From a virus (Duplodnaviria > Caudoviricetes), in the IMG/VR virus record IMGVR_UViG_3300010234_000046, positions 1 to 31,292 of that record: 31,292 nucleotides of DNA. The stretch is one strand, 5' to 3'. Under the pieces are notes generated by a model. The model did not search any database. It was not told the DNA's origin and saw only the letters and a program-made list of their open reading frames with translations. A program made the translations under genes and the position numbers. Every line of letters begins with the position of its first letter. The stretch's first letter is position 1. Positions 5,893-31,292 of this stretch are shown here, one piece after another.

Positions 5893-5921
5893 ATTATACC
5901 ATATTTTCACTATTATGTATA
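5893..5921 (-). promoter_or_regulatory. sigma70-type promoter for uvsX
   Basis: TATACA-N17-TATAAT with TATGGTATAAT extended -10. Confidence 0.7.
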
Positions 5922-6848
5922 GTAGGACATGTACCATTCATGAAATTTCCTAACCCCTTCGGCCATGTCGACCGTCGGATTCCAACCAAGTTTCTGTAGC
6001 TTGGTGGTATCCGACCACGTTTCAACCGCATCCGCTGGATGTTTAGGTGCGAATACGACATCAGCCTGAACTTCACAATTACGCTCAATCTCTCTAACAA
6101 AATCCATGAGATCAGATTGTTTTCCATTACCCACACAATATAGGTCACGCTTAGTCATATTATTACTAACGCTGAAAATAGCCGAAACCACATCGTCAAT
6201 GTACGTAAAGTCCCGCTTCATCTCACCATTGTTGAAAACTGTAATCTTATTACCAGCAAGAATGTTCTTGGTGAAATCTAATAGCGCCATATCAGGCCGA
6301 CCCCATGGGCCATAGACCGTGAAAAATCTTAGACCGACCGCGTTTGGAATTTTACTAATTGCAAATTGCTGTTCGCTACACGCTTTGGTGTATCCATATG
6401 GACTCAAGGCTGGATTTAGTTTATCGGTCTCATTCCACGGAAGGGGATTATCGTGCATGACGCACGACGTACTCGCGTATATCACGTCTTGGACACCCAA
6501 AGCTTCGCAGGCATCAATAACATTTTGACTGCCCACGATGTTATTGTTGATATAATCCATTGGATTATCCATGGAATGTCTAACGCCCGCGTATGCAGCC
6601 AGATGAATCACCAAATCAGGCCTGTTGATACCCATCACGACTTGTAGCCCTACAGGCTGGAGATGGATATCCAAATCATGTACACCGATTTCATTTTCAC
6701 GAAGTAGATTTGCACGATCATGCTTGAGTTTAGGGTCGTAATAATCATTGAAATTATCAATCCCCTCAACATCAAACCCCTGAGACTTATATTTCAATGC
6801 CGTATGGTAACCAATGAACCCCGCAATACCTGTGATAAAAACCTTCAT
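5913..6848 (-). CDS. NAD-dependent epimerase, UDP-glucuronate 4-epimerase (WcaG/CapI-like)
   Basis: ITGIAGFIG Rossmann, HLAAYAGVR, YGYTK YxxxK, RFFTVYGPWGRPDMA, RDFTYIDD; start at MKVF gives an ATGA overlap. Confidence 0.92.
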   Translation of the reverse strand: MKVFITGIAGFIGYHTALKYKSQGFDVEGIDNFNDYYDPKLKHDRANLLRENEIGVHDLDIHLQPVGLQVVMGINRPDLVIHLAAYAGVRHSMDNPMDYINNNIVGSQNVIDACEALGVQDVIYASTSCVMHDNPLPWNETDKLNPALSPYGYTKACSEQQFAISKIPNAVGLRFFTVYGPWGRPDMALLDFTKNILAGNKITVFNNGEMKRDFTYIDDVVSAIFSVSNNMTKRDLYCVGNGKQSDLMDFVREIERNCEVQADVVFAPKHPADAVETWSDTTKLQKLGWNPTVDMAEGVRKFHEWYMSYYT

Positions 6849-7054
6849 ACCTTTTCCACCCAATCGTAACAGTCCACCAAAGGATGGTGGTATTTCATTG
6901 TATCAGGAGTCATGATCGGTGCAATAATGTCCACACGTGGCGGCTCAGATTTATTCCAACGGCGACCCATGAACACCCATTCGTTGTTCTCATCATATTG
7001 AGCAATTTCGACATTGCCACCACTGCTATGATTGATTATCCAATAGTATCTCAT
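6845..7054 (-). CDS. hypothetical protein
   Basis: 69 aa ORF with 4-nt overlaps on both sides. Confidence 0.7.
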   Translation of the reverse strand: MRYYWIINHSSGGNVEIAQYDENNEWVFMGRRWNKSEPPRVDIIAPIMTPDTMKYHHPLVDCYDWVEKV

Positions 7055-7617
7055 TTCATTTCCTTTCCCACAATGCGGTAATCGTCAGACATAAATCTAA
7101 GATATTCATCGATTTCGTCTACCTCACACACAGTCCCATCTGCCCACTCAGCATGGGGCGATGATGAGTGGTCAACATCATTAATTATGTTATTCAAAGT
7201 ATACTCCTGACCGACACGTTCGCGCAATTCTGACGATGACCACGAATGGTCTCTTGTGTTGTACCTAATATCGATACCCAAATCATTACCTGTGAAATCC
7301 TTATTCAAATATTCTAATCCGACAAATCTAACGTCAATCGGCTGTGTCACTAATAGGTTGAGCAGATCGGCCTCAGTTGAGTATGGAATGATATGATCGA
7401 CGTATTTACAGCCCCTCAACTGAACCCACCGTTCATATACGCTCTGTACTGGTCGGTGTTTGTTGGTGCGGTCAACACTTGGATCAACCTGAAGCCCCAC
7501 GATTAAAACATCACAAAGACCCTTACACTCCTCAAGCATTAGGACATGACCAGCATGTAGCAAATCGAATGTTGAGCAGGTAAAGCCCACCCTTCCAGCA
7601 TCTAAAATATCAATCAT
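7051..7617 (-). CDS. cytidylyltransferase (TagD/RfaE-like) with C-terminal extension
   Basis: FDLLHAGH HxGH motif, LIVGL, R-x-H-x-W-SSSELR. Confidence 0.88.
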   Translation of the reverse strand: MIDILDAGRVGFTCSTFDLLHAGHVLMLEECKGLCDVLIVGLQVDPSVDRTNKHRPVQSVYERWVQLRGCKYVDHIIPYSTEADLLNLLVTQPIDVRFVGLEYLNKDFTGNDLGIDIRYNTRDHSWSSSELRERVGQEYTLNNIINDVDHSSSPHAEWADGTVCEVDEIDEYLRFMSDDYRIVGKEMK

Positions 7618-8519
7618 TTGAATTTAACTCCTTGTGACTTTTCCCTATCATCCAATTCATACTTAGAGCGAATCTTGTTGTTGATTTTCGATACGACTTC
7701 GAGTAATGGAAACTTCGTAAATTTGATCAGGGCATTCACGTCTTTCGGAAAGCACGCTCCACCATAACCGTTCTTCAAATCAGGTCCGGGCACGAATGTA
7801 TGACTGGCCCCAATCCGATCATCACCACCCATCACACGGGCGATTTTGTCATACGACGCGCCGTCAAAATTCTCAACGACATCTTTAAACTGGTTAAACC
7901 AAATGATTTTGGATGCCAGATATGAATTGATCCCGTACTTGATAAATGATGCTTCAGCGGCGGAGACTTGGTGAACAGGGCAGGATGCACAGATAGACAT
8001 CTCATCATAAACCCGCGCACAGATCGAAGTGGCCACCGGATAACCACCAAATACATGCATAGGTGGATTAACAAAATCAGTCATCGCGCTTCGTTCAGTT
8101 AGAAACTCAGGATTGTAAACGAAGTACAGACTCTCATAGTTATCGAACCTGTCCTGTATAACGTCCACTAGGTCTGGAGTAAGAGTGGACTTCAGAACAA
8201 TCAGATGATCTTTCATCTCTGTGCTTAGTGTTTGGAACGGTGCAAAGTGCCGGATATCTTTAAGATATTGGTCATAATCATCAATAATTTTATCGACAAC
8301 GCTCTCGACTATACTACCGTCAACTGACCCATCTTTTCCCATGGGAGTCGGAACGCAGATAAAGACGACCTGCTCAGCATGGAAATCGAGGCGTTCGTCC
8401 GACACATATTTTTTGCTTCGTTTCCTTGCGTAAATCGGGTCGAATACCCGTTTGACGTGTTTACCGAAACCATATTCGACGGCTTTACCGACAAAGCCGT
8501 GCCCAAAAATAGTAACCAT
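7614..8519 (-). CDS. ugd: UDP-glucose/GDP-mannose 6-dehydrogenase family, lacking the C-terminal domain
   Basis: GHGFVG, FICVPTP, LKST, YNPEFL, KYGINSYLA, catalytic GYGGACFPKD; only 301 aa. Confidence 0.88.
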   Translation of the reverse strand: MVTIFGHGFVGKAVEYGFGKHVKRVFDPIYARKRSKKYVSDERLDFHAEQVVFICVPTPMGKDGSVDGSIVESVVDKIIDDYDQYLKDIRHFAPFQTLSTEMKDHLIVLKSTLTPDLVDVIQDRFDNYESLYFVYNPEFLTERSAMTDFVNPPMHVFGGYPVATSICARVYDEMSICASCPVHQVSAAEASFIKYGINSYLASKIIWFNQFKDVVENFDGASYDKIARVMGGDDRIGASHTFVPGPDLKNGYGGACFPKDVNALIKFTKFPLLEVVSKINNKIRSKYELDDREKSQGVKFK

Positions 8520-10094
8520 TTAACCTCTCCATTTCCCATCACGAATTGTAATGAGTGTGCGTTTACCATTAGGATATGTCACAATGTGGCTGTGATCCCA
8601 AGAAGACAATCCTTCAGCATTATACCCCATATTGAGTTTTCCCGAAACCCCTGCCTGAAAAGTTCCTTCGATAATAGCAGGAGAGTGGGCATGACCGACG
8701 TTATATTTTCGAGCAGCTTTACTAAACTGGACAGCGGAACCACGTGAGCCGTTAGTGCCTTTATGGCCATGCAAAGCACACTCAATTGGACTTTGTACAC
8801 CTTGACAAATCAGGAACGAATTCTCACCAGTGACAAACGAAATACCATCCAAGTGAGTTGGGGATTCTTCACGGCACGCATACTCAAACGTATTGAGCTG
8901 TTCCCCCGCTTCAATCGACCGATACACTGCGGCATTCAGCTCGTGCCAATAACGGGCATTCATATGATCTTGAGCAACCTTAGCATCCTTTATCCAACGG
9001 CCCAGAGCCTGATCGTGGTTAGATTCTACTACTACTGTCTGACAGAAATCACGACGTGACCATTCGAGCCAGTTAGATGATTCCGCAATCTCTTTCTGGA
9101 CACCATTAGTTCCCCACTGCATATCTGCCTTAGCCAAAAAATGCGGATCATCGCGGTTATGGTGGTTCCGAACATAGAAATCCAATAGGTCATGCATGAA
9201 CTGGTATTTTGGCTTGAGGACATCGATAATGGAATCCTCACGGCCCCAATTAATATATTCAATGTCAATGTCCAACTGTTCTTTATGTATATCACCCCAA
9301 TTCACCGCTTCAACCCTATGGTCGTGGGTGATTGACCCATGCTGTATAAACGTAGTCAAATCATAGAACGACCCGTCAGAGGTGGCGTTAATATGTCGAC
9401 ACCAGAATGTACCATTTGAAGCGACCTCAACCACGACAGCCCCAGGGGTGTGATGGAATTCAGCCTTTTTACCAGCAGAACGCTGAATGTAATTTGGATC
9501 AGTGACCGTACCTGTGGACATGATTTGTTTAGGCAGTGATGACGGTGAAATCGGCACCGACTGCAATCTGATCCGGCTGTGGGGAATAATCGCCCAGTTG
9601 TCCCGTGAGAGGTTTTCGTAACCCGACAGGGGGTTAACCGCAGTTGGTAGAATGTTCGCATCTCCGACCCACATAAGGCCAGGGGCAAGCATTTTTTTCT
9701 CAGTACACATATACGGACCCAAACGAGTGTCGTAAGTTGCGGTTTCTGTGTTTTCTTCAGCCTTGAACATATTCTTACTGTAGGTATAACCACCCACTAA
9801 CAATTCCGCTTTTCGGTGTTCAACATATGCCAACAGATTGGTCCAAAAATTCTTGAAAAGCGGTGTGTCATCTTGAGCCGACGTGAGAACGTACACTTTA
9901 GTGCCTGAGTGACTGACTGGTTGACGACCCTCCTCGACCAATCCCATTTCCATGGCTTTATCAAGGCGGCGTCCGACAGTGCGGCGATGGATACCCAAAG
10001 CCTTTGCAGCGGCGGTGATCGAATTACCATTTTCTCGCCAACTATCAACCGTGCGTTTAATTTCATGGTAAGTGAGTGGTTCTTTTTTGGACAT
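8520..10094 (-). CDS. HTH plus calcineurin-like metallophosphoesterase, T5 A1-like nuclease
   Basis: N-terminal SITAAAKALGIHRRTV HTH; TSAQ, NILPTAxxPLSG, STGTVTxxNYIQxxAGxKAE blocks as recalled for T5 A1; metal motifs GDIH, HDLLD, SNHD, HGH, GHAH. Confidence 0.8.
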   Translation of the reverse strand: MSKKEPLTYHEIKRTVDSWRENGNSITAAAKALGIHRRTVGRRLDKAMEMGLVEEGRQPVSHSGTKVYVLTSAQDDTPLFKNFWTNLLAYVEHRKAELLVGGYTYSKNMFKAEENTETATYDTRLGPYMCTEKKMLAPGLMWVGDANILPTAVNPLSGYENLSRDNWAIIPHSRIRLQSVPISPSSLPKQIMSTGTVTDPNYIQRSAGKKAEFHHTPGAVVVEVASNGTFWCRHINATSDGSFYDLTTFIQHGSITHDHRVEAVNWGDIHKEQLDIDIEYINWGREDSIIDVLKPKYQFMHDLLDFYVRNHHNRDDPHFLAKADMQWGTNGVQKEIAESSNWLEWSRRDFCQTVVVESNHDQALGRWIKDAKVAQDHMNARYWHELNAAVYRSIEAGEQLNTFEYACREESPTHLDGISFVTGENSFLICQGVQSPIECALHGHKGTNGSRGSAVQFSKAARKYNVGHAHSPAIIEGTFQAGVSGKLNMGYNAEGLSSWDHSHIVTYPNGKRTLITIRDGKWRG

Positions 10095-15743: not shown

Positions 15744-16418
15744 TTATTTCTCCTGAAAATGTTTAGTAGGTTTCAAGGGGTCACCATCAGGGAGCCAACG
15801 ATGTGACTCAATGATCATGAATTTTATTCCTTCATTGTACGCTATTTTTTTGGCTTCGTCAATGTCATTCTCGTTGTAACTGAAAACTATGTACTGCCAC
15901 GTGATATCATTACCCATCCTAGCTCCCTTTTTCATGATCTCAAACACGGCCTCACCGTCTTGGTTCTTTCTGTATTTGTGGGAATCCTTGGGTAGACCAT
16001 CGACGCCGAATAGCCATTTCACCCGATCATAATAGAACGCGTTTGACCAAAAGTCATCCTTTTTTCCGTGACCATTCGTGGATACGGTGATGTCGTTCTC
16101 ATTCAGCCATGCGATGTGGAGTAGTTTGATAAAGCGGGGGTGGTAAATGGGATCACCCATCGCGCCACACAACCAAAGATTCTCATGAAATTTGCATATT
16201 TTTTCAAAGCTCTCGTCGGTAATATCTGATCCACGTTTCCACCACCCCTTCGGCCCTTCCATCCGTGCACATTTACTGCACTGGAGTAGGCAACGGTGAG
16301 TCACGTCTACGTTAACCAATAATTCCTCTGGCCCATAATTGCTTAGTTTTGGGGAATCTGTCATAGCAAAACTCATACGATTTCTGGTGCCTGATCTGGC
16401 ACCGGTTATATGCTTCAT
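15744..16418 (-). CDS. radical SAM protein (true start probably shorter, e.g. TTG 16319)
   Basis: CLLQCSKC CxxxCxxC, GAMGDP, STNG, FGVDG, WQYIVFSYNE. Confidence 0.88.
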   Translation of the reverse strand: MKHITGARSGTRNRMSFAMTDSPKLSNYGPEELLVNVDVTHRCLLQCSKCARMEGPKGWWKRGSDITDESFEKICKFHENLWLCGAMGDPIYHPRFIKLLHIAWLNENDITVSTNGHGKKDDFWSNAFYYDRVKWLFGVDGLPKDSHKYRKNQDGEAVFEIMKKGARMGNDITWQYIVFSYNENDIDEAKKIAYNEGIKFMIIESHRWLPDGDPLKPTKHFQEK

Positions 16419-17109
16419 TCATCCAACCATCAGTCTCCAAAGCTGGAATGGATGGATAGTGATTCACAACTTTGTTGATAAATTCCACCTTCGGCGGAAG
16501 CCCCAAAAAGTAGTAAAGATTCTCAAGCGTTTCCCACCGAAACATCTCCTCAAAAATTATGTACTCAATGTCGTCTGGCTCGAACACTTTTTCAATTTCA
16601 GGAATGATAATATCATAACGATTAGCTCGTTCATCGGAAGACATGGGTAAATTCTCACGACCGATAATCGCCGGATCAATACTATACGCCTCAATGAATT
16701 CGCTTGGAAATAGGCGTCCACCTGTATAATGTTCACGTGCACGTAGACGGCTCATATTATTAGTCCATGGGTCTCTGAGTATGAAAATCAGCTTGACCTT
16801 GACCCCAATGGATTCGCAATAATACCTGATCCGCTCATAATCTCCTGATTCAAATACGGGGGAATATGCCGGACTGATATCTGTAACCATGTCATTATGG
16901 TATATCCAGAAATCGTCAACTAGGGTCTGAGGCTTGATATTATTATTACGCTCGTACCTGACGTATTCAGGATATCGGTCAACGCAATTCGGTATCCAAG
17001 AATTCGGCTCTTTCATGCCGTCGGCCACGCAGTCATATGAGGTCAAATACTCATGCAGCCATGTAGTACCTGATCGATATGAACCTGGGCATAATATAAG
17101 TGTCTTCAT
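16312..17109 (-). CDS. PAPS-dependent sulfotransferase-like protein
   Basis: PGSYRSGTTWLH 5'-PSB loop, KE, DISPAY, ILRDP 3'-PB motif. Confidence 0.82.
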   Translation of the reverse strand: MKTLILCPGSYRSGTTWLHEYLTSYDCVADGMKEPNSWIPNCVDRYPEYVRYERNNNIKPQTLVDDFWIYHNDMVTDISPAYSPVFESGDYERIRYYCESIGVKVKLIFILRDPWTNNMSRLRAREHYTGGRLFPSEFIEAYSIDPAIIGRENLPMSSDERANRYDIIIPEIEKVFEPDDIEYIIFEEMFRWETLENLYYFLGLPPKVEFINKVVNHYPSIPALETDGWMNEAYNRCQIRHQKSYEFCYDRFPKTKQLWARGIIG

Positions 17110-17569: not shown

Positions 17570-17944
17570 TCAACCGCCGCCTTCAGCCATGGATGCTTTC
17601 ATCAATTCAATCTGTCCATCATCGAACAAGTCTTCCACCTGTTGAGCCTTGACGCGGCTGTAATCATAGTAACGCATCAGCACATCAACCTTATCTGAAA
17701 TGACAGATTTGTCCCATTTACTAAACCGTTTACGCTTTCGGATAACCTCACGGAGGAAATCGTATTGCATCCGATTATCCATGTTATGGTATCTGTTCAT
17801 TTCATTAGCAAAATGGATTGTGTCCTGAAAATATGACAGGCTTCGGTTCACCACAAATGCGTTATATGCGGCTTCATCCTCATCATCAAGCATAATGTTC
17901 TGCTTGGTTTCGTTGATCGATTTCACATAGTCAAATGGGTTCAT
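17570..17944 (-). CDS. 62: clamp loader small subunit (T4 gp62)
   Basis: MNPFDYVKSIN, YNAFVVNRSLS, ANEMN, QYDFL, RKRKRFSKW. Confidence 0.93.
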   Translation of the reverse strand: MNPFDYVKSINETKQNIMLDDEDEAAYNAFVVNRSLSYFQDTIHFANEMNRYHNMDNRMQYDFLREVIRKRKRFSKWDKSVISDKVDVLMRYYDYSRVKAQQVEDLFDDGQIELMKASMAEGGG

Positions 17945-18470
17945 TTGATTTCCTCCTCAGCTTGTTCTTGTGAGAGTAACATGCTGGTGGCTCAGAGTCA
18001 AGAGTTAAAAACTTCCAGAGATTTTCTGGGTCGTCACCCCCAACTACGTTCACCTCAATTAAATCATTACGACCGTAAAAATACTGGCCAACTAAAGCAT
18101 GGTGGCGGTCATATGCCAGAGATGCTTCAAATTCAGTTGGAAAGGCTGATCCGTATATCATCTCCCGAATTTGGATTTGCGCTTTGGACTGTGGCCAATC
18201 ACGCTTCCGCTCGAAATATGGGACAATAGATTCCAGCCATTCATATTTATCCCGCACAGTCAATATGAATTTTGAGTCGGGAAACTTCTTATCCAAATCC
18301 ATGAAATAGAGAGCTACTGGAATATCAGTAGCCCCGTCGTAGTTGCCATGAAACAATTCCACCCTGTTGGGGTAGTGTATCATATTGATACCCGCTTCAT
18401 CCCTCAGAGTGTCGTTGAGCGACGTTGTTCCAGTTCTAGATAGTCCAATACCAAAAATTTTACCCATCAC
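17931..18470 (-). CDS. sulfotransferase family protein (Sulfotransfer_4-like)
   Basis: IFGIGLSRTGTTSL, D-x-P, FPDSKFILTVRD..WLES. Confidence 0.82.
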   Translation of the reverse strand: MMGKIFGIGLSRTGTTSLNDTLRDEAGINMIHYPNRVELFHGNYDGATDIPVALYFMDLDKKFPDSKFILTVRDKYEWLESIVPYFERKRDWPQSKAQIQIREMIYGSAFPTEFEASLAYDRHHALVGQYFYGRNDLIEVNVVGGDDPENLWKFLTLDSEPPACYSHKNKLRRKSNEPI

Positions 18471-18994
18471 TCAGCGGCCACTTTTTCGATGGCATTACGG
18501 GGGTCAATGAATTCGACTTGAATCTCAGTTCTCTGAGTCTTTTCACCACTCGGAGATTTAGTTTTTTTCTTGGCGGTAATTTTAACGCGCATACCGTTCT
18601 GCTTGTTTCGGTTGGCTTGATCGACCCTCTTTTTATTTTCCTTCGTGTATGGAATCTCATACGCACGTGGAAGCATATCCAAATCGGATTTAAAAATCCT
18701 TTCGAAAACCGTTTCGGATGTTTTTGAATCGGTGAGCCACACAAAGATGCGGCCCTCCTCCATACCATTCGGTTCAACGCTGTATCCGGAAATAAATTCG
18801 GCATCCTCAAAATTCGATGAGTGTGTAGGATATCCCCTATACTCAGACAACGAAAAGAACGAGAGGTTTGCACATAGTAGTAACAAAATCCCTAAAATAA
18901 TTGACCACTTGCTGCTAATCACGAAGGCGAAATAGAAAGTGAACAGAGCGACTACCACGAAGAAGGTTATTAGAAAAATGTCGATGTAGATCAT
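18467..18994 (-). CDS. membrane protein (two N-terminal TM helices, periplasmic domain)
   Basis: Two hydrophobic segments, then GYP, IFVWL, PRAYEIPY. Confidence 0.75.
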   Translation of the reverse strand: MIYIDIFLITFFVVVALFTFYFAFVISSKWSIILGILLLLCANLSFFSLSEYRGYPTHSSNFEDAEFISGYSVEPNGMEEGRIFVWLTDSKTSETVFERIFKSDLDMLPRAYEIPYTKENKKRVDQANRNKQNGMRVKITAKKKTKSPSGEKTQRTEIQVEFIDPRNAIEKVAAE

Positions 18995-18995
18995 A

Positions 18996-19649
18996 TCAGA
19001 ATCCTGACGCTGGGGTTGGTAGACGCTTCATTCCGATCAGCGTTTCGAACGAATCGTCTTTCAGATGATACATTGATCCCTCGTCAGAAAGTTCAAAGCG
19101 AAGAGCCGTTTTCTCTTGCCAAATTTTGGTCATTCTGATTTTCTTGCGAATGATCATGTTATATTTCGGGTTCAGTTTTACCAGTTTTATGACCACTGGA
19201 ACATCAATAGGCAATCCAAGTTTGTTACCTGAAGGAAGCCCTTTACACGCATACACATGTAAGTTGGCCAGATATTCACCGTCAAATTTTGAGCGCAAAG
19301 TCCAGATTTCAGAATTCCCTTTATGCAGAATCGGCTTTCCGTTATGATAAATGGTATCAGTTTGATTGCCCATATCGTCACGCTCAAGGTGCATATATTT
19401 GTTATTTTTCTGCCTGAACGACACCTTACTGCCGTCAGGACCGCGTACCCATAGGTCAACGTCACAATCAATTTCATCAGGCCAGTTTACCTCAAACATG
19501 TACTGAGCCACTTTTTCGATATCCGCCTTTTTCGCGATAGGGTTAACAAGTAAAAATAACAACCCAGTAATCACGATAAATGCTAAAAGCTTGGCGAAGA
19601 GGAGATCAGAAAAGACCCCCTCCGGAAGTGCGTCTTTATGATTTTGCAT
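18996..19649 (-). CDS. ExbD/MotB-like single-TM protein with YfaP/DUF2135-like periplasmic domain (start corrected to MQNH)
   Basis: FSDLLF Asp at the start of the TM helix; W...DVDLWVRGPDG...LERDD.G...N.E...GEYLANLHVY. Confidence 0.7.
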   Translation of the reverse strand: MQNHKDALPEGVFSDLLFAKLLAFIVITGLLFLLVNPIAKKADIEKVAQYMFEVNWPDEIDCDVDLWVRGPDGSKVSFRQKNNKYMHLERDDMGNQTDTIYHNGKPILHKGNSEIWTLRSKFDGEYLANLHVYACKGLPSGNKLGLPIDVPVVIKLVKLNPKYNMIIRKKIRMTKIWQEKTALRFELSDEGSMYHLKDDSFETLIGMKRLPTPASGF

Positions 19650-20112
19650 TTTTGAAAATCCGATCCAACAGTACAAGCTGTGTGGCGAGTGCCATGCTCG
19701 CGATGAGGCCTACAATGGTGGTCACGAGGGCCGTTCCTAAGGCTGAAAACATCAACTTGATCATGCCCATAATTGCCGATTGGTTGTTCACATCAATTGT
19801 GAGCTGACTCAAGCCATCTACAGCAACCATCAGTCCAATCACCGTTCCCAACAGGCCCAACTGTGTCAGACGACTTGAGATGTAGTAATGAGTATCAAAA
19901 CGTCGAGTGTTCGATTTCGACCAGTCGAATTCGGTGAACGGTAGGCTAACCAAACAGCCCACATAGAGCGCCATTATCATAACTGAAATGTATGTGAAGT
20001 CGTGCGAAACCACCCACCCAAATACTCCAGAATATACGAGCCAAACAGCAACACAAAGATTACTCGCTATCATGGTGGCCCAAAAGGCCATAATTTTCTT
20101 AGTCGTGTTCAT
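19636..20112 (-). CDS. MotA/TolQ/ExbB proton channel family protein
   Basis: LGLLGTVIGL and GTALVTTIVGL signature helices; four TM segments. Confidence 0.88.
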   Translation of the reverse strand: MNTTKKIMAFWATMIASNLCVAVWLVYSGVFGWVVSHDFTYISVMIMALYVGCLVSLPFTEFDWSKSNTRRFDTHYYISSRLTQLGLLGTVIGLMVAVDGLSQLTIDVNNQSAIMGMIKLMFSALGTALVTTIVGLIASMALATQLVLLDRIFKNAKS

Positions 20113-20816
20113 TCTGTTGACTCCGTTTCTTGATTGAGTTCGCTATACAGCACGGCCATTTGTGCTGCTGTATATGTCATTGATGTTAAATAATCTGTCG
20201 GGATGCTATGCTCCAAAATCTGCCTCAAACTGGAATCCAAATCGATAAGCAGCGGGAGCAGTTCAACATTTTTCTTAATGATCAGGAAAACTTCCTCTGA
20301 CGTGTTCGCCATTACATACCCTGAAAAAGTTGGACTGAAACCCATCTGCATCAGATAATGCAGAGCGATTTGACCGGTTATATGACCGCCGACGAAAATA
20401 TCTTTGCGACCCAAAAGCTGACTTGGTGGAATGCCCTCCTGATCGTAATAAGGGCGGTGGAACGCGACAATACCTTCAATTTTAACCTCTTCGGAAGCAA
20501 TTGCGGCGAACGCACAGGCACTGATGCAGACGGCTCTGGATGGGATGTGGACTGCGACACCCATCTCGCGAATGAGTTCACCGGTCGCGATTCCTTCGCT
20601 GAAGATTCCTCCTGGGGAGTTCATAATCATCGTCCGTTCAGGATTTTCATTCAAAAATGCTTTAAGTCGGTCGGTTGTTCCTCCCGAAAACTGTCCATCA
20701 AACAAAATAGTCCTCACACCGTTCCACTCGACGAATTTCAATTCTTCCGAATGACTAACTGAGACAGAAATTAGCAATGCTATTGATGATATTAGAAGTT
20801 TTACAAATTGGTTCAT
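20109..20816 (-). CDS. secreted ClpP/crotonase-fold protein
   Basis: Signal peptide, MNSPGG, CISACAF, VAFH motifs. Confidence 0.7.
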   Translation of the reverse strand: MNQFVKLLISSIALLISVSVSHSEELKFVEWNGVRTILFDGQFSGGTTDRLKAFLNENPERTMIMNSPGGIFSEGIATGELIREMGVAVHIPSRAVCISACAFAAIASEEVKIEGIVAFHRPYYDQEGIPPSQLLGRKDIFVGGHITGQIALHYLMQMGFSPTFSGYVMANTSEEVFLIIKKNVELLPLLIDLDSSLRQILEHSIPTDYLTSMTYTAAQMAVLYSELNQETESTE

Positions 20817-24123: not shown

Positions 24124-24162
24124 TTCGGAATCCGGAATCTGACCTCCCGGAGATGTTACCTT

Positions 24163-24190
24163 ATTATACAGCAATTTTCGGATTTGTCAA
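24163..24190 (-). promoter_or_regulatory. consensus sigma70 promoter in antisense orientation
   Basis: TTGACA-N16-TATAAT on the minus strand in an intergenic gap between plus-strand genes. Confidence 0.7.
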
Positions 24191-27979: not shown

Positions 27980-28921
27980 ATGGATAATAATACATTATGG
28001 GTTGAGAAGTATCGGCCAGAGCGGGTTGCGGATTGTGTCCTACCTGATGACATTAAAAAGACATTTCAGGGCATTGTCGATTCAGGGGATATCCCTAATA
28101 TGATTCTGAGCGGAACAGCAGGAATTGGCAAGACTACAATCGCCAAAGCTATCTGTAAAGAGATGGGTCTGGATTTTATGATGATTAACGGATCGAAAGA
28201 CCGTAACATTGATACATTGAATGGTCGCATCCAGTCATTCGCCTCGACCGTATCTCTGAACGGTGGCGTGAAGGTAGTAATAATTGATGAGGCCGATTAC
28301 CTCAACCCGCAATCTACTCAACCAGCATTGCGTGCGTTCATCGAAGAGAATTCCTCCAATTGCAGGTTCATTTTCACTTGTAATCTGAAGTCTAAGATCA
28401 TGAAGCCATTGCATTCGCGGTGTACTACGTTCGATTTCAATTCGGTTAATCAGGATTTGTCTAAACTGAGTATGGAATTTTACAAGCGCATGGCTTGGAT
28501 TCTGGACAATGAGAACAAAACATTTGACAGTGCAGTGCTTGGTGCTTTGATTATCAAACATGCTCCAGATTGGCGGCAGGTAATTAATGATTGTCAACGC
28601 TATACTAAGGCTGGATCGCTTGATAAAAGCGTAGTATCCAGTACTGCGGGCGATGATGAATATGATAAGTTGTTTACTGCTATGAAGGTGAAGCAATTTA
28701 CTACGGTTCGCAAGTGGGTTGTGGCCAACCTAAATACAGACGTTAGTACAATATTCAGAGGCATTTATGACCGCATGGATGGTCGTTTAGCGCCACATTC
28801 AATACCGTCAGCAATTGCTATTCTGGCTGAGTACCAGTTCAGATCGGCATTTGTGGCGGATCACGAAATCAATTTGATGGCGTGCTTGGATGAAATTATG
28901 AGAGATGTGGAGTGGAAGTGA
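27980..28921 (+). CDS. 44: clamp loader AAA+ subunit (T4 gp44)
   Basis: LWVEKYRP, GTAGIGKTT, IIDEAD, SRC motif. Confidence 0.96.
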   Translation: MDNNTLWVEKYRPERVADCVLPDDIKKTFQGIVDSGDIPNMILSGTAGIGKTTIAKAICKEMGLDFMMINGSKDRNIDTLNGRIQSFASTVSLNGGVKVVIIDEADYLNPQSTQPALRAFIEENSSNCRFIFTCNLKSKIMKPLHSRCTTFDFNSVNQDLSKLSMEFYKRMAWILDNENKTFDSAVLGALIIKHAPDWRQVINDCQRYTKAGSLDKSVVSSTAGDDEYDKLFTAMKVKQFTTVRKWVVANLNTDVSTIFRGIYDRMDGRLAPHSIPSAIAILAEYQFRSAFVADHEINLMACLDEIMRDVEWK

Positions 28922-28965
28922 TGTGGATTACTAATCAAAAAGAGCTAGAGTGGGGAGACGATTAT

Positions 28966-29256
28966 ATGGGTCTGAAAATGTATACTAAAGAGGAATGTGT
29001 CTATTGTCATATGTTGGCCGAGAGACTGAAGGAATGGGGTGTCGAATATACGGCGGTTCCGTTTTCAGATACCGACCGCACATTCGCTAAATATCCGCAA
29101 TTGATGTTCGATGATAATGATGTGCTACTTGACGATACGGCAGGTCTAACGTTGGAACTTCTGACCAGTCGCATTGACGATTTGAGTTCAGTCGAAATTT
29201 GGGGAGAACACGTAGGCTGTGATTTCACATTAAGAAATCCGAATGGAGAGGTGTAA
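28966..29256 (+). CDS. glutaredoxin-like protein (start corrected to MGLKMY)
   Basis: YTKEECVYC CxxC, YPQL cis-Pro motif, GGGGAG SD. Confidence 0.8.
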   Translation: MGLKMYTKEECVYCHMLAERLKEWGVEYTAVPFSDTDRTFAKYPQLMFDDNDVLLDDTAGLTLELLTSRIDDLSSVEIWGEHVGCDFTLRNPNGEV

Positions 29257-29528
29257 TGTTTGAATATCTAGTATACCATTTACGAGAGGCTAAGCGGGCC
29301 GCAGGAAGCGACGAGCCTCTGACGGTGAAAGACTACTTCGTACACTGTGTGATCGCTCTACGTGAGGCTGTGAGCCTTTTATACAAGGTCTGGGCATCAG
29401 TGGTACATGCATTCTTCCCGTGGTTATATGGGTTTGAAATGATCGATTGGCAGATCGACGCATTGAAGCGTCTGAAAGCCGCGCTACCTTCCCTGCCTGT
29501 TTGGGATCGAATCGAATTTAAAGATTGA
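29256..29528 (+). CDS. DUF6356-like small protein
   Basis: HL...YFVH...A...VVHAFFPWLY pattern. Confidence 0.55.
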   Translation: MFEYLVYHLREAKRAAGSDEPLTVKDYFVHCVIALREAVSLLYKVWASVVHAFFPWLYGFEMIDWQIDALKRLKAALPSLPVWDRIEFKD

Positions 29529-29553
29529 CACGAGTAAATGATTCGTATATAAT
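29525..29553 (+). promoter_or_regulatory. perfect consensus sigma70 promoter
   Basis: TTGACA-N17-TATAAT. Confidence 0.9.
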
Positions 29554-29576
29554 ACACGTAAATTAAGGAGAAACTA

Positions 29577-29756
29577 ATGACTGAAAATAATAGTGGCGGG
29601 ATCGGGTTTGTTGGTCTGTTGACCATCCTTTTCGTTGGCCTCAAATTAACTGGATACATAGCGTGGTCATGGGTGTGGGTGCTTTCACCTCTCTGGATTT
29701 CGCTAGGTATCTTTATATTGGTTATCACATTAATGATTATAGCTAAGGAGAAATAA
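29577..29756 (+). CDS. 59-aa two-TM membrane protein (phage TMEM185/'Fragile-X-F'-like)
   Basis: Manual translation MTENNSGGIGFVGLLTILFVGLKLTGYIAWSWVWVLSPLWISLGIFILVITLMIIAKEK*; AAGGAG SD; missing from the ORF track. Confidence 0.88.
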   Translation: MTENNSGGIGFVGLLTILFVGLKLTGYIAWSWVWVLSPLWISLGIFILVITLMIIAKEK

Positions 29757-29758
29757 AA

Positions 29759-30106
29759 ATGGCTAAGAAATTTACCAATGTTGCTGCTCAGGGTGACTTC
29801 ATCATCTTCAGGGTTCCGGACATTCCGGCTGATGCGACGCTCCTCGATAAGCCAGGAACAGTCGCTCATTCAGAGACTGGACATGATCACGTGCTTGATC
29901 GTCCAAGCGTGGTTGATATGTACGTTCCAAAAGGTGAGACGCTGGACGATACGTTCACTCTTTGGTTGAACGTTAAGGACGACACTGAGATTAAACATCT
30001 CCGCAATCATGATACACATGAGCCTATTCATGTTGGATTTGGCACCTACAGAATCGCTCGACAACGCGAGTACGTATCGGAAGGTTTCCGTCGCGCTCAA
30101 GACTAA
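29759..30106 (+). CDS. His-motif 'QGD' protein, typical neighbour of DUF6745 genes
   Basis: QGD, HSETGHDH, H...HEPI, G.Y.I.RQREY. Confidence 0.75.
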   Translation: MAKKFTNVAAQGDFIIFRVPDIPADATLLDKPGTVAHSETGHDHVLDRPSVVDMYVPKGETLDDTFTLWLNVKDDTEIKHLRNHDTHEPIHVGFGTYRIARQREYVSEGFRRAQD

Positions 30107-30120
30107 CAAATAATTTTATT

Positions 30121-31005
30121 ATGGAGAATGAAATGGCCGAAAAAATTACAGAACTCACACCATCACAAACGGCACTAATGCCCGAATACGTGAAAAAGTG
30201 GACAGACATTGGTTTGTCCACCGGTCCCGTCGATAAAGAAAATGCCGTAGCCGCTATCAAAAAGGCGTATCGGGTGGCTGGATTGGACGAGCCTACTCAA
30301 TTCTATTATACCAAGAGTCCCTTGGATGCAATCAAATGCATCCAGAAATTAGACCCTTCGAAGTCTAAGTCGGACATTTACGGCGAAATGATTTATGGTA
30401 ATCAGGACGCATCATGGTTGTCATTTTACGACTACATGTTCGAAGAAGTGATCCATGAAAAGGATCATATCGCCAAAGGTCTGATGGACATTGCAGAATG
30501 TTCTGGATGGCTGAACGTATATGAAGACGTTGTGGTCTTTCAAGATCGTCCAGTTTTTATCAAAATGGATGAGAACAACTTGCTTCATTCTGAGACAGGC
30601 CCAGCTATTGAATATTCAGACGGCATGTCTGTTTATTCTTGGCACGGAACACGTATTCCCGGCGAATGGATCGATACCCCCGAAAAACTGAAACCTGCTG
30701 ATGCTCTGGCGTGGGCAAATGTCGAGCAGCGCCGATGTGCGTGTGAAATTATTGGTTGGGATACTATCCTAGAGTCTCTCAACTGTGAGGTGATCGATGA
30801 AGACGGTGATCCATCGATTGGAACGCTCGTTGAGGTCGATAGCGTATCAGGTGATGGGCGTGATCGGTTCTTGCGTGTAGTTTGTGGAACAGGTCGTAAG
30901 TTTGCCCTTCCAGTCCCACCAGAAATGACCACCGCACTTGAAGCTCAATGTTGGGGGTATGATGTCCCTGTGGATATCATCGAGGGCATTGAAGTCCGGA
31001 CATGA
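30121..31005 (+). CDS. DUF6745-like protein (start may be ATG 30133)
   Basis: ELTPSQ...KW...GLST, SP, GNQDASWLSFYDY, SGW, DRP, LHSETGPAIEYSDG...WHG, NVEQRR, C.TGRKFALPVPP. Confidence 0.8.
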   Translation: MENEMAEKITELTPSQTALMPEYVKKWTDIGLSTGPVDKENAVAAIKKAYRVAGLDEPTQFYYTKSPLDAIKCIQKLDPSKSKSDIYGEMIYGNQDASWLSFYDYMFEEVIHEKDHIAKGLMDIAECSGWLNVYEDVVVFQDRPVFIKMDENNLLHSETGPAIEYSDGMSVYSWHGTRIPGEWIDTPEKLKPADALAWANVEQRRCACEIIGWDTILESLNCEVIDEDGDPSIGTLVEVDSVSGDGRDRFLRVVCGTGRKFALPVPPEMTTALEAQCWGYDVPVDIIEGIEVRT

Positions 31006-31199
31006 ATAGTGTTAAGAAACAGGTCTGTAATCAGACCTGTAATCAGGTCAGGGATCAGGTCAGGAATCGGGTCTGGGATCAGGTGTATTTTCAGGTGCAT
31101 TTTCAGGTCAGGGATCAGGTCTATAATCAGGTTGAGGATCAGGTCAGGGTTCGGGTTAATACTCAGGTCTATAATCATGTGTATGATGGAATCAGTTAA
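31002..31199 (+). CDS. QVxx tetrapeptide-repeat protein 1
   Basis: MNSVKKQVCNQTCNQVRDQVRNRVWDQVYFQV...; ATGA overlap with the DUF6745 gene. Confidence 0.75.
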   Translation: MNSVKKQVCNQTCNQVRDQVRNRVWDQVYFQVHFQVRDQVYNQVEDQVRVRVNTQVYNHVYDGIS

Positions 31200-31292
31200 G
31201 AAACAGGTCTGGGATCAGGTCAGGGATCAGGTCTATAGTCAGGTCTGGAATCAGGTCTGGGATCAGGTCTATAATCAGGTCAGTATTCAGGT
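31020..31292 (+). repeat. degenerate 12-bp tandem repeat CAGGTC-NNN-RAT
   Basis: About 20 units visible, e.g. CAGGTCTGGGAT, CAGGTCAGGGAT, CAGGTCTATAAT. Confidence 0.92.
31183..31292 (+). CDS. QVxx tetrapeptide-repeat protein 2 (partial, runs off window)
   Basis: Manual translation MMESVKKQVWDQVRDQVYSQVWNQVWDQVYNQVSIQV; same SVKKQV start as copy 1, overlapping its 3' end. Confidence 0.75.
   Translation, partial: MMESVKKQVWDQVRDQVYSQVWNQVWDQVYNQVSIQ

Follow-up and report, generated by a model that had tools for sequence, protein, structure and literature searches.

A DUF6745 unit in a T4-like phage fragment that carries its family's tetrapeptide repeat as separate mini-genes

Why does the gene of a DUF6745 protein that lacks the tetrapeptide tract of many of its relatives stand directly in front of small genes built from this very repeat? 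The question is raised by one end of the virus record IMGVR_UViG_3300010234_000046, the whole available sequence of which (31,292 nt) was analyzed and is referred to here as the window. It represents a 31.3-kb piece of a T4-like phage genome with a GC content of 43%, and its genes encode DNA polymerase, the sliding clamp, clamp loaders, a RegA-like repressor and UvsX/Y, as well as an SbcC/D-like nuclease pair, a late sigma factor and a tail tube. Sequence related to the window was detected in marine metagenome runs of four studies, with no run containing half of its words. Two further regions of the fragment can be highlighted. Within the replication region, a sugar-modification cluster (5913-10094, minus strand) encodes a nucleotide-sugar epimerase, a heptose kinase/adenyltransferase-like protein and a UDP-glucose dehydrogenase-like protein. 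A block of ORFs mostly without PHROG matches (15744-17109, 17931-19676 and 19636-20816, all on the minus strand) separates the clamp-loader/RegA genes from the tail-tube gene and includes a protease-like ORF (20109-20816) and a radical-SAM-like ORF (15744-16418). The unit under study had been outlined in a preliminary description as a promoter followed by a micro-ORF, a QGD gene, a DUF6745 gene and at least two overlapping mini-ORFs, and each of these elements was found in its place:

29525..29553, plus strand: sigma70-type promoter, TTGACA-17-TATAAT, matching at 12 of 12 positions
29577..29756, plus strand: membrane micro-ORF, 59 aa (phrog_1374, E 1e-19)
29759..30106, plus strand: QGD/His ORF, 115 aa (phrog_27831, E 1e-8; ESM Atlas name PF31129)
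30121..31005, plus strand: DUF6745 core, 294 aa (PF20530, E 1e-26)
31002..31199, plus strand: mini-gene 1, (QVxx)n, 65 aa, starting MNSVKKQV; ATGA overlap with the core stop
31183..31292, plus strand: mini-gene 2, (QVxx)n, start at 31183 or 31186 (M-MESVKKQV), cut by the contig end

The core protein scores 93.7 bits against PF20530 over residues 90-283, where the gathering cut-off is 27. The DUF6745 family comprises 11,696 representatives at 50% identity (E<=0.001) and ranges over lytic phages, prophages and bacterial chromosomes; no paper on DUF6745, PF20530 or such arrays was found in the literature searched, the coverage of which leaves out most subscription journals. A four-residue-periodic tract inside other DUF6745 proteins, which the preliminary description had attributed to the family, is present in family members: QVxx, QLxx, SVxx or similar tracts occupy the insert position in many of the 150 best representatives, and an internal tract is also found in the annotated records prophiGD102-1 gp38 and MW202476. 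The internal-repeat form is recognized by its tetrapeptide tract, which follows the SP motif and precedes G-x-x-D-x-x-W, and the window core lacks this tract. Here, P67 and G93 are separated by 25 non-repetitive residues, and the P-to-W distance is 32 versus a median of 138.5 in 48 complete internal-repeat clusters. A search for longer homologs of the core returned four proteins, each with a long insert. The structure of the short core is predicted confidently (pLDDT 91), with short helices at residues 67-77 and 83-89, the position of the tract in its relatives. Foldseek with this model identified no solved fold at E<=0.001, the best result of a VIA search (Z 4.8 over 73 residues) gave no clear PDB fold match, and PDB sequence searches with the core and QGD profiles reached at best E 0.02.

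The missing repeat appears instead downstream. All 13 occurrences of a 12-nt CARGT lattice in the window fall within 31002-31292 (mean 0.115 and maximum 2 in 200 shuffles). A profile of 41 mini-proteins aligned with the internal tract at 99.6%, a value that is subject to the caveat of low complexity, and a search with mini-ORF1 against 50,697 annotated phage records had a single match, the tract in prophiGD102-1 gp38 (E 0.03). The similarity of mini-proteins and inserts is of low complexity and could be convergent. To compare the distribution of the two forms among DUF6745 loci, 317 loci were classified, 13 unclassifiable ones were dropped, and 164 clusters were formed at 90% identity of the core C-terminus. 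Mini-ORFs within 3 kb of the core were found in 49 of 67 short-insert clusters (including one mixed cluster), 40 of the 49 having two or more, whereas they were found in none of the 70 internal-repeat clusters. The short-insert clusters without a mini-ORF consisted of nine on full flanks, eight on short flanks and one mixed cluster. The absence from internal-repeat clusters held for those with flanks of at least 2 kb (0/38) and for viral and metagenome loci only (0/41), and among clusters with a long non-repeat insert one in 27 had mini-ORFs. A Fisher test gave a nominal p of 5e-18, and of 2e-10 with 70% clusters, but the clusters are related to one another. In a quick tree, a single clade of 44 rows holds 35 of the 40 array rows, which makes the clusters non-independent; array rows outside this clade are L076, L081, L068/L073 and L071, and the starred branches force at least three changes of array state. 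The core of L076, which has QL-type mini-genes, groups with QL-internal cores. GC content is a confounder, as low-GC phages (<50%) account for 47 of the 49 array clusters and for only nine internal-repeat clusters.

Searches of whole records and of repeat-bearing loci agree with this division. Whole-record searches of 28 internal-repeat phage records (17 of them at least 90% complete) yielded repeat matches in 27, and their numbers equaled the counts inside the core gene, in one record after allowing for wrap-around. When loci were instead sampled by the repeat (the 80 with flanks among 129, not dereplicated by contig), 39 lay inside DUF6745, 22 were ORFs, short or cut by the contig end, in the vicinity of a core free of repeats, 18 were such ORFs in loci lacking the core, and one was inside an unrelated ORF. 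The core-less loci derive from 17 records, of which two have the core elsewhere and 15 have no PF20530 match; these 15 are mostly 3-19% complete, with one 63% complete and one complete. The unrelated 125-aa ORF with a QVxx tract (L386:9815-10192, minus strand) belongs to a complete 38-kb phage record without a PF20530 match, in which a protein with AAxx tetrapeptide repeats, reminiscent of Tweety gp54, is encoded about 2 kb away. These records speak against action together with the core, as do arrays that sit kilobases from it and the detection of distal arrays in only three of the 20 records with a repeat-less core and no array close by (searched whole, almost all of them fragments). The complete genome of Ma-LMM01, which has a non-repeat insert, contained no array in a whole-record search. 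The outcome named in the preliminary description as refuting it, insert-less cores that stand without repeat ORFs equally often, did not occur, and the externalization of the repeat from the core that it had proposed is strongly supported by these counts and by the coding signal of the mini-ORFs. The split unit is a real, widespread and undescribed variant of an uncharacterized family, and we hold with good confidence that its mini-genes originate from the internal tract of DUF6745.

Multiplication of the variable slot is also seen in a second form, as whole DUF6745 paralogs stand in tandem on the bacterial contigs L265, L305 and L315, the last with three of them. Other members carry LRRs ahead of the domain: on a bacterial MAG contig, an LRR-DUF6745 fusion (L282:1178-2164) directly follows an McrBC component, and the ESM Atlas contains a cyanobacterial LRR-DUF6745 cluster. 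LRR-fused and tandem forms are as expected for a variable recognition slot. Among the neighbors of 18 bacterial DUF6745 loci (49 proteins scanned), no family other than DUF6745 recurred.

As descendants of the DUF6745 tract, the mini-proteins might now function alone, acting on a host target as decoys, sponges or self-assembling peptides, with the short core working without them. This would fit arrays that lie far from the core and at several places per genome, the insert-less cores without arrays (9-10 full-flank clusters), the modeling of the short core as a complete, confident fold, and the QV tract that a complete phage lacking DUF6745 carries in an unrelated ORF. Independence would not predict, however, that no tract-keeping core among 70 has an array, and most arrays adjoin the core or the QGD gene; stand-alone action is the less likely reading but a serious rival. 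The strict exclusivity is most simply explained by substitution, a phage having either a built-in tract or free peptides in its place, and this suggests that the mini-proteins act in trans with the DUF6745/QGD core, and their binding to this core is slightly favored.

The arrays give several indications of coding. The detector reported 225 mini-ORFs, about 22 of which are off-frame readings of the same tracts; their median length is 64 aa and the lengths cluster near this value. Stops were counted on the DNA, independently of ORF calls, and are depleted in the QV frame. The Gln slots contain one stop in 1806, with AAA (29), CGA (22) and CCA (12) far exceeding TAA (1). Position 3 of the tetrad (2137 slots) shows TAG 0 and TGA 1 next to AGG 330, TTG 97, TCG 97 and TGG 554, and position 4 shows no stop in 2137 slots. 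In addition, variable codons change less at their third position than at the first two, as reported for Tweety gene 54. Overlaps between consecutive genes include -4 (66 cases), -14 (18) and -17 (8), and in the window mini-ORF2 overlaps mini-ORF1 by 17 or 14 nt, depending on the start. A relative with 85% core identity (L001) has seven mini-ORFs, the first of which ends in a copy of the last residues of the core, so that duplication of the junction can build an array. From these signatures, we predict with high confidence that the mini-genes are translated, likely by coupling at the overlaps. Contigs from RNA libraries covered 26 and 12 of 30 bins, upstream genes included, and transcription of the mini-genes is not thereby shown. 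The hydrophobicity spectrum of the mini-proteins, with peaks at 90 and 180 degrees, restates the Val at every fourth residue and leaves helix and strand undecided. In L073/L074, more than twelve QV mini-genes, nearly all ending in VKENLK, form an array that is split by an unrelated insertion.

The mini-genes change quickly between strains. At 94-98% core identity, strains have no identical mini-protein in common, and L017, L018 and L022 combine identical cores with different gene numbers, differences to which assembly collapse in the repeats may contribute in part. A contig with 63 differences from the window over 28109-31084 (about 2980 nt) carries a rearranged mini-gene 1, and all contig joints in four runs fall within 31020-31283, inside the repeat region. 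The recombination of arrays among themselves would fit a role that the preliminary description had considered, in which the array is a silent store of cassettes and the core gene receives repeats from it through recombination or gene conversion. Silent-cassette systems such as Neisseria pilS and the orphan Rhs/MafB cassettes recombine into an expressed gene via shared flanks, and the window unit resembles them in lining up variable modules next to a constant gene. Shared DNA flanks are missing here, however: in 47 clusters, the longest word in common between the insertion zone and the cluster's own array was at most 11 nt, equal to a control zone. Moreover, no repeat unit, not even a partial one, was found in 67 short cores, and no contig joint in the four runs led from the core interior into repeats. 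One internal-repeat core (L174) falls within the array clade, but its flank is of the ancestral type. Since start codons, overlaps and stop avoidance also speak for expressed genes, donation to the core is very improbable and this part of the earlier proposal was abandoned.

Two other explanations deny that the mini-ORFs are genes of their own. Programmed frameshifting could join them to the core or to each other into long fusion proteins, and every junction is indeed a frame-shifted overlap. The core ends, however, in an invariant E-x-R-T, no slippery run is present at the core end of the window, the junction sequences vary between lineages, and arrays are frequently located upstream, on the far side of the QGD gene, or at a distance, making fusion by frameshifting scarcely credible. 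Least probable of all is a non-coding or selfish minisatellite with ORFs as by-products, for although 12-nt units expand easily and other frames are often open too, stop avoidance is specific to the QV frame while other single-base neighbors are common, lengths lie near 64 aa, and an ATG and a constant overlap recur in every unit.

The core has an almost constant companion in the QGD gene. The QGD gene lies 14 nt upstream of the core in the window and beside the core in 143 of 153 loci with flanks of at least 2 kb. Natural DUF6745-QGD fusions are found in two (P0283, P0290) of 43 longer QGD homologs, and in the ESM Atlas the QGD protein also aligns to part of a 366-aa DUF6745 cluster. Across 71 sequences, G12, E39, H44, H87, G95, E104 and D115 are invariant and H42 and H80 are conserved in at least 90%. 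The conserved His/Glu/Asp residues suggest a metal site and hence a putative metal-binding protein, and the QGD and DUF6745 proteins probably form a heterodimer with this His metal site. Compared with Pfam, 8 of 71 members matched DUF4399 (best E 0.001), which is a lead only, and a relation of QGD and core as paralogs was rejected (1.4% in a profile-profile comparison). In many of the 43 longer QGD homologs (P0275-P0315), the QGD domain follows C-terminally on an HNH-like endonuclease region, annotated as Pfam HNH in three and recognized by eye in the others, suggesting repeated in-frame insertion of homing endonucleases at the start of the QGD gene.

Known members of the family contain the same pair of a DUF6745 core (PF20530; phrog_31813) and a phrog_27831 partner, as in prophiGD102-1 gp38/gp37 and Ma-LMM01 gp174/gp175, the latter being transcribed as middle class B5 according to Table S3 of PMC5780444. 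The tract of internal-repeat members is x-Q-V/L-x, the same tetrad as in the window mini-genes, and the window unit differs in that the tract is missing from the core and present as separate genes. Expression of the unit likely depends on the site at 29525-29553 as a host-polymerase (early/middle) promoter. Perfect sigma70 sites number two in the window versus a mean of 0.02 expected from 500 shuffles, while promoter-like sites overall are not enriched in the window (7 vs 9.7), and a promoter of at least 11/12 within 400 nt of the module start was found in 19 of 42 array-bearing clusters versus 50 of 680 background windows. The second perfect site (about 24160-24190, minus strand) lies directly upstream of the late sigma factor gene and faces away. 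The membrane micro-gene, which the preliminary description had listed within the operon, was rejected as a member: no homolog was found at any other fetched DUF6745 locus, the relative L001 included. The 59-aa gene is a co-transcribed passenger and not a conserved member.

A mechanism can be proposed for this split unit. The strong host-polymerase promoter would yield a single mRNA on which ribosomes would re-initiate at every overlap. Slippage and unequal recombination, at 12-nt units and gene junctions, would reshuffle tetrad positions 3 and 4 and the number of genes while Q-V stays fixed, and one phage would thereby hold a cocktail of variants. The mini-ORFs would then be fast-changing, free-standing copies of the tract, likely translated, that bind the repeat-less DUF6745/QGD core in trans as exchangeable parts and are possibly tuned against host defenses, a reading for and against which we see the chances as about equal.

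Variable tetrapeptides of this kind have a precedent. Gp54 of the mycobacteriophage Tweety (with Che8 gp57 and PMC gp51) is described as containing tetrapeptides with two fixed and two variable residues, encoded by 12-bp units that vary in number and in which the third position of a codon is better conserved than the other two (PMC2884959), and its repeat number is reported to tune counter-defense against Phrann gp29/gp30 (PMC9262239). Both systems thus use a variable tetrapeptide repeat from a 12-bp unit, and they are analogous with different residues: gp54 is a single gene with internal AAxx repeats, for which these accounts describe no partner pair or mini-gene array, whereas the window has QVxx in separate array genes. 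Homology of the N- and C-terminal domains was rejected, as gp54 had no PF20530 match, shared no Pfam match with the unit and reached an hhalign probability of 0.07%. A further variable short repeat, VR2 of bbp36 in Bordetella phage BMP-1, differs between isolates in a non-essential phage gene (PMC2884959); its unit is 24 bp inside one gene, and the likeness extends to what is described in that source. In light of the hypervariability, the strong promoter, the LRR-DUF6745 gene by McrBC and the non-homologous Tweety gp54 precedent, a role in phage-host conflict may tentatively be suggested, which is the weakest step of the proposal. Defense families (PADLOC, NCBIfam) compared with five window proteins produced no match better than E 0.009.

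Genes of about 65 codons with other frames that are often open represent a class that gene callers can misread. The exclusivity of internal and detached forms suggests that it is the tract that works and varies. It is conceivable, if unlikely, that the segment giving a conserved pair of proteins its variable recognition has repeatedly left its gene in evolution and been expanded into a set of recombining, co-expressed mini-genes that may reach a dozen or more, bringing many specificities on one scaffold into each infection against host defenses. If true, this would represent a protein-level route to phage hypervariability without reverse transcriptase or gene conversion.
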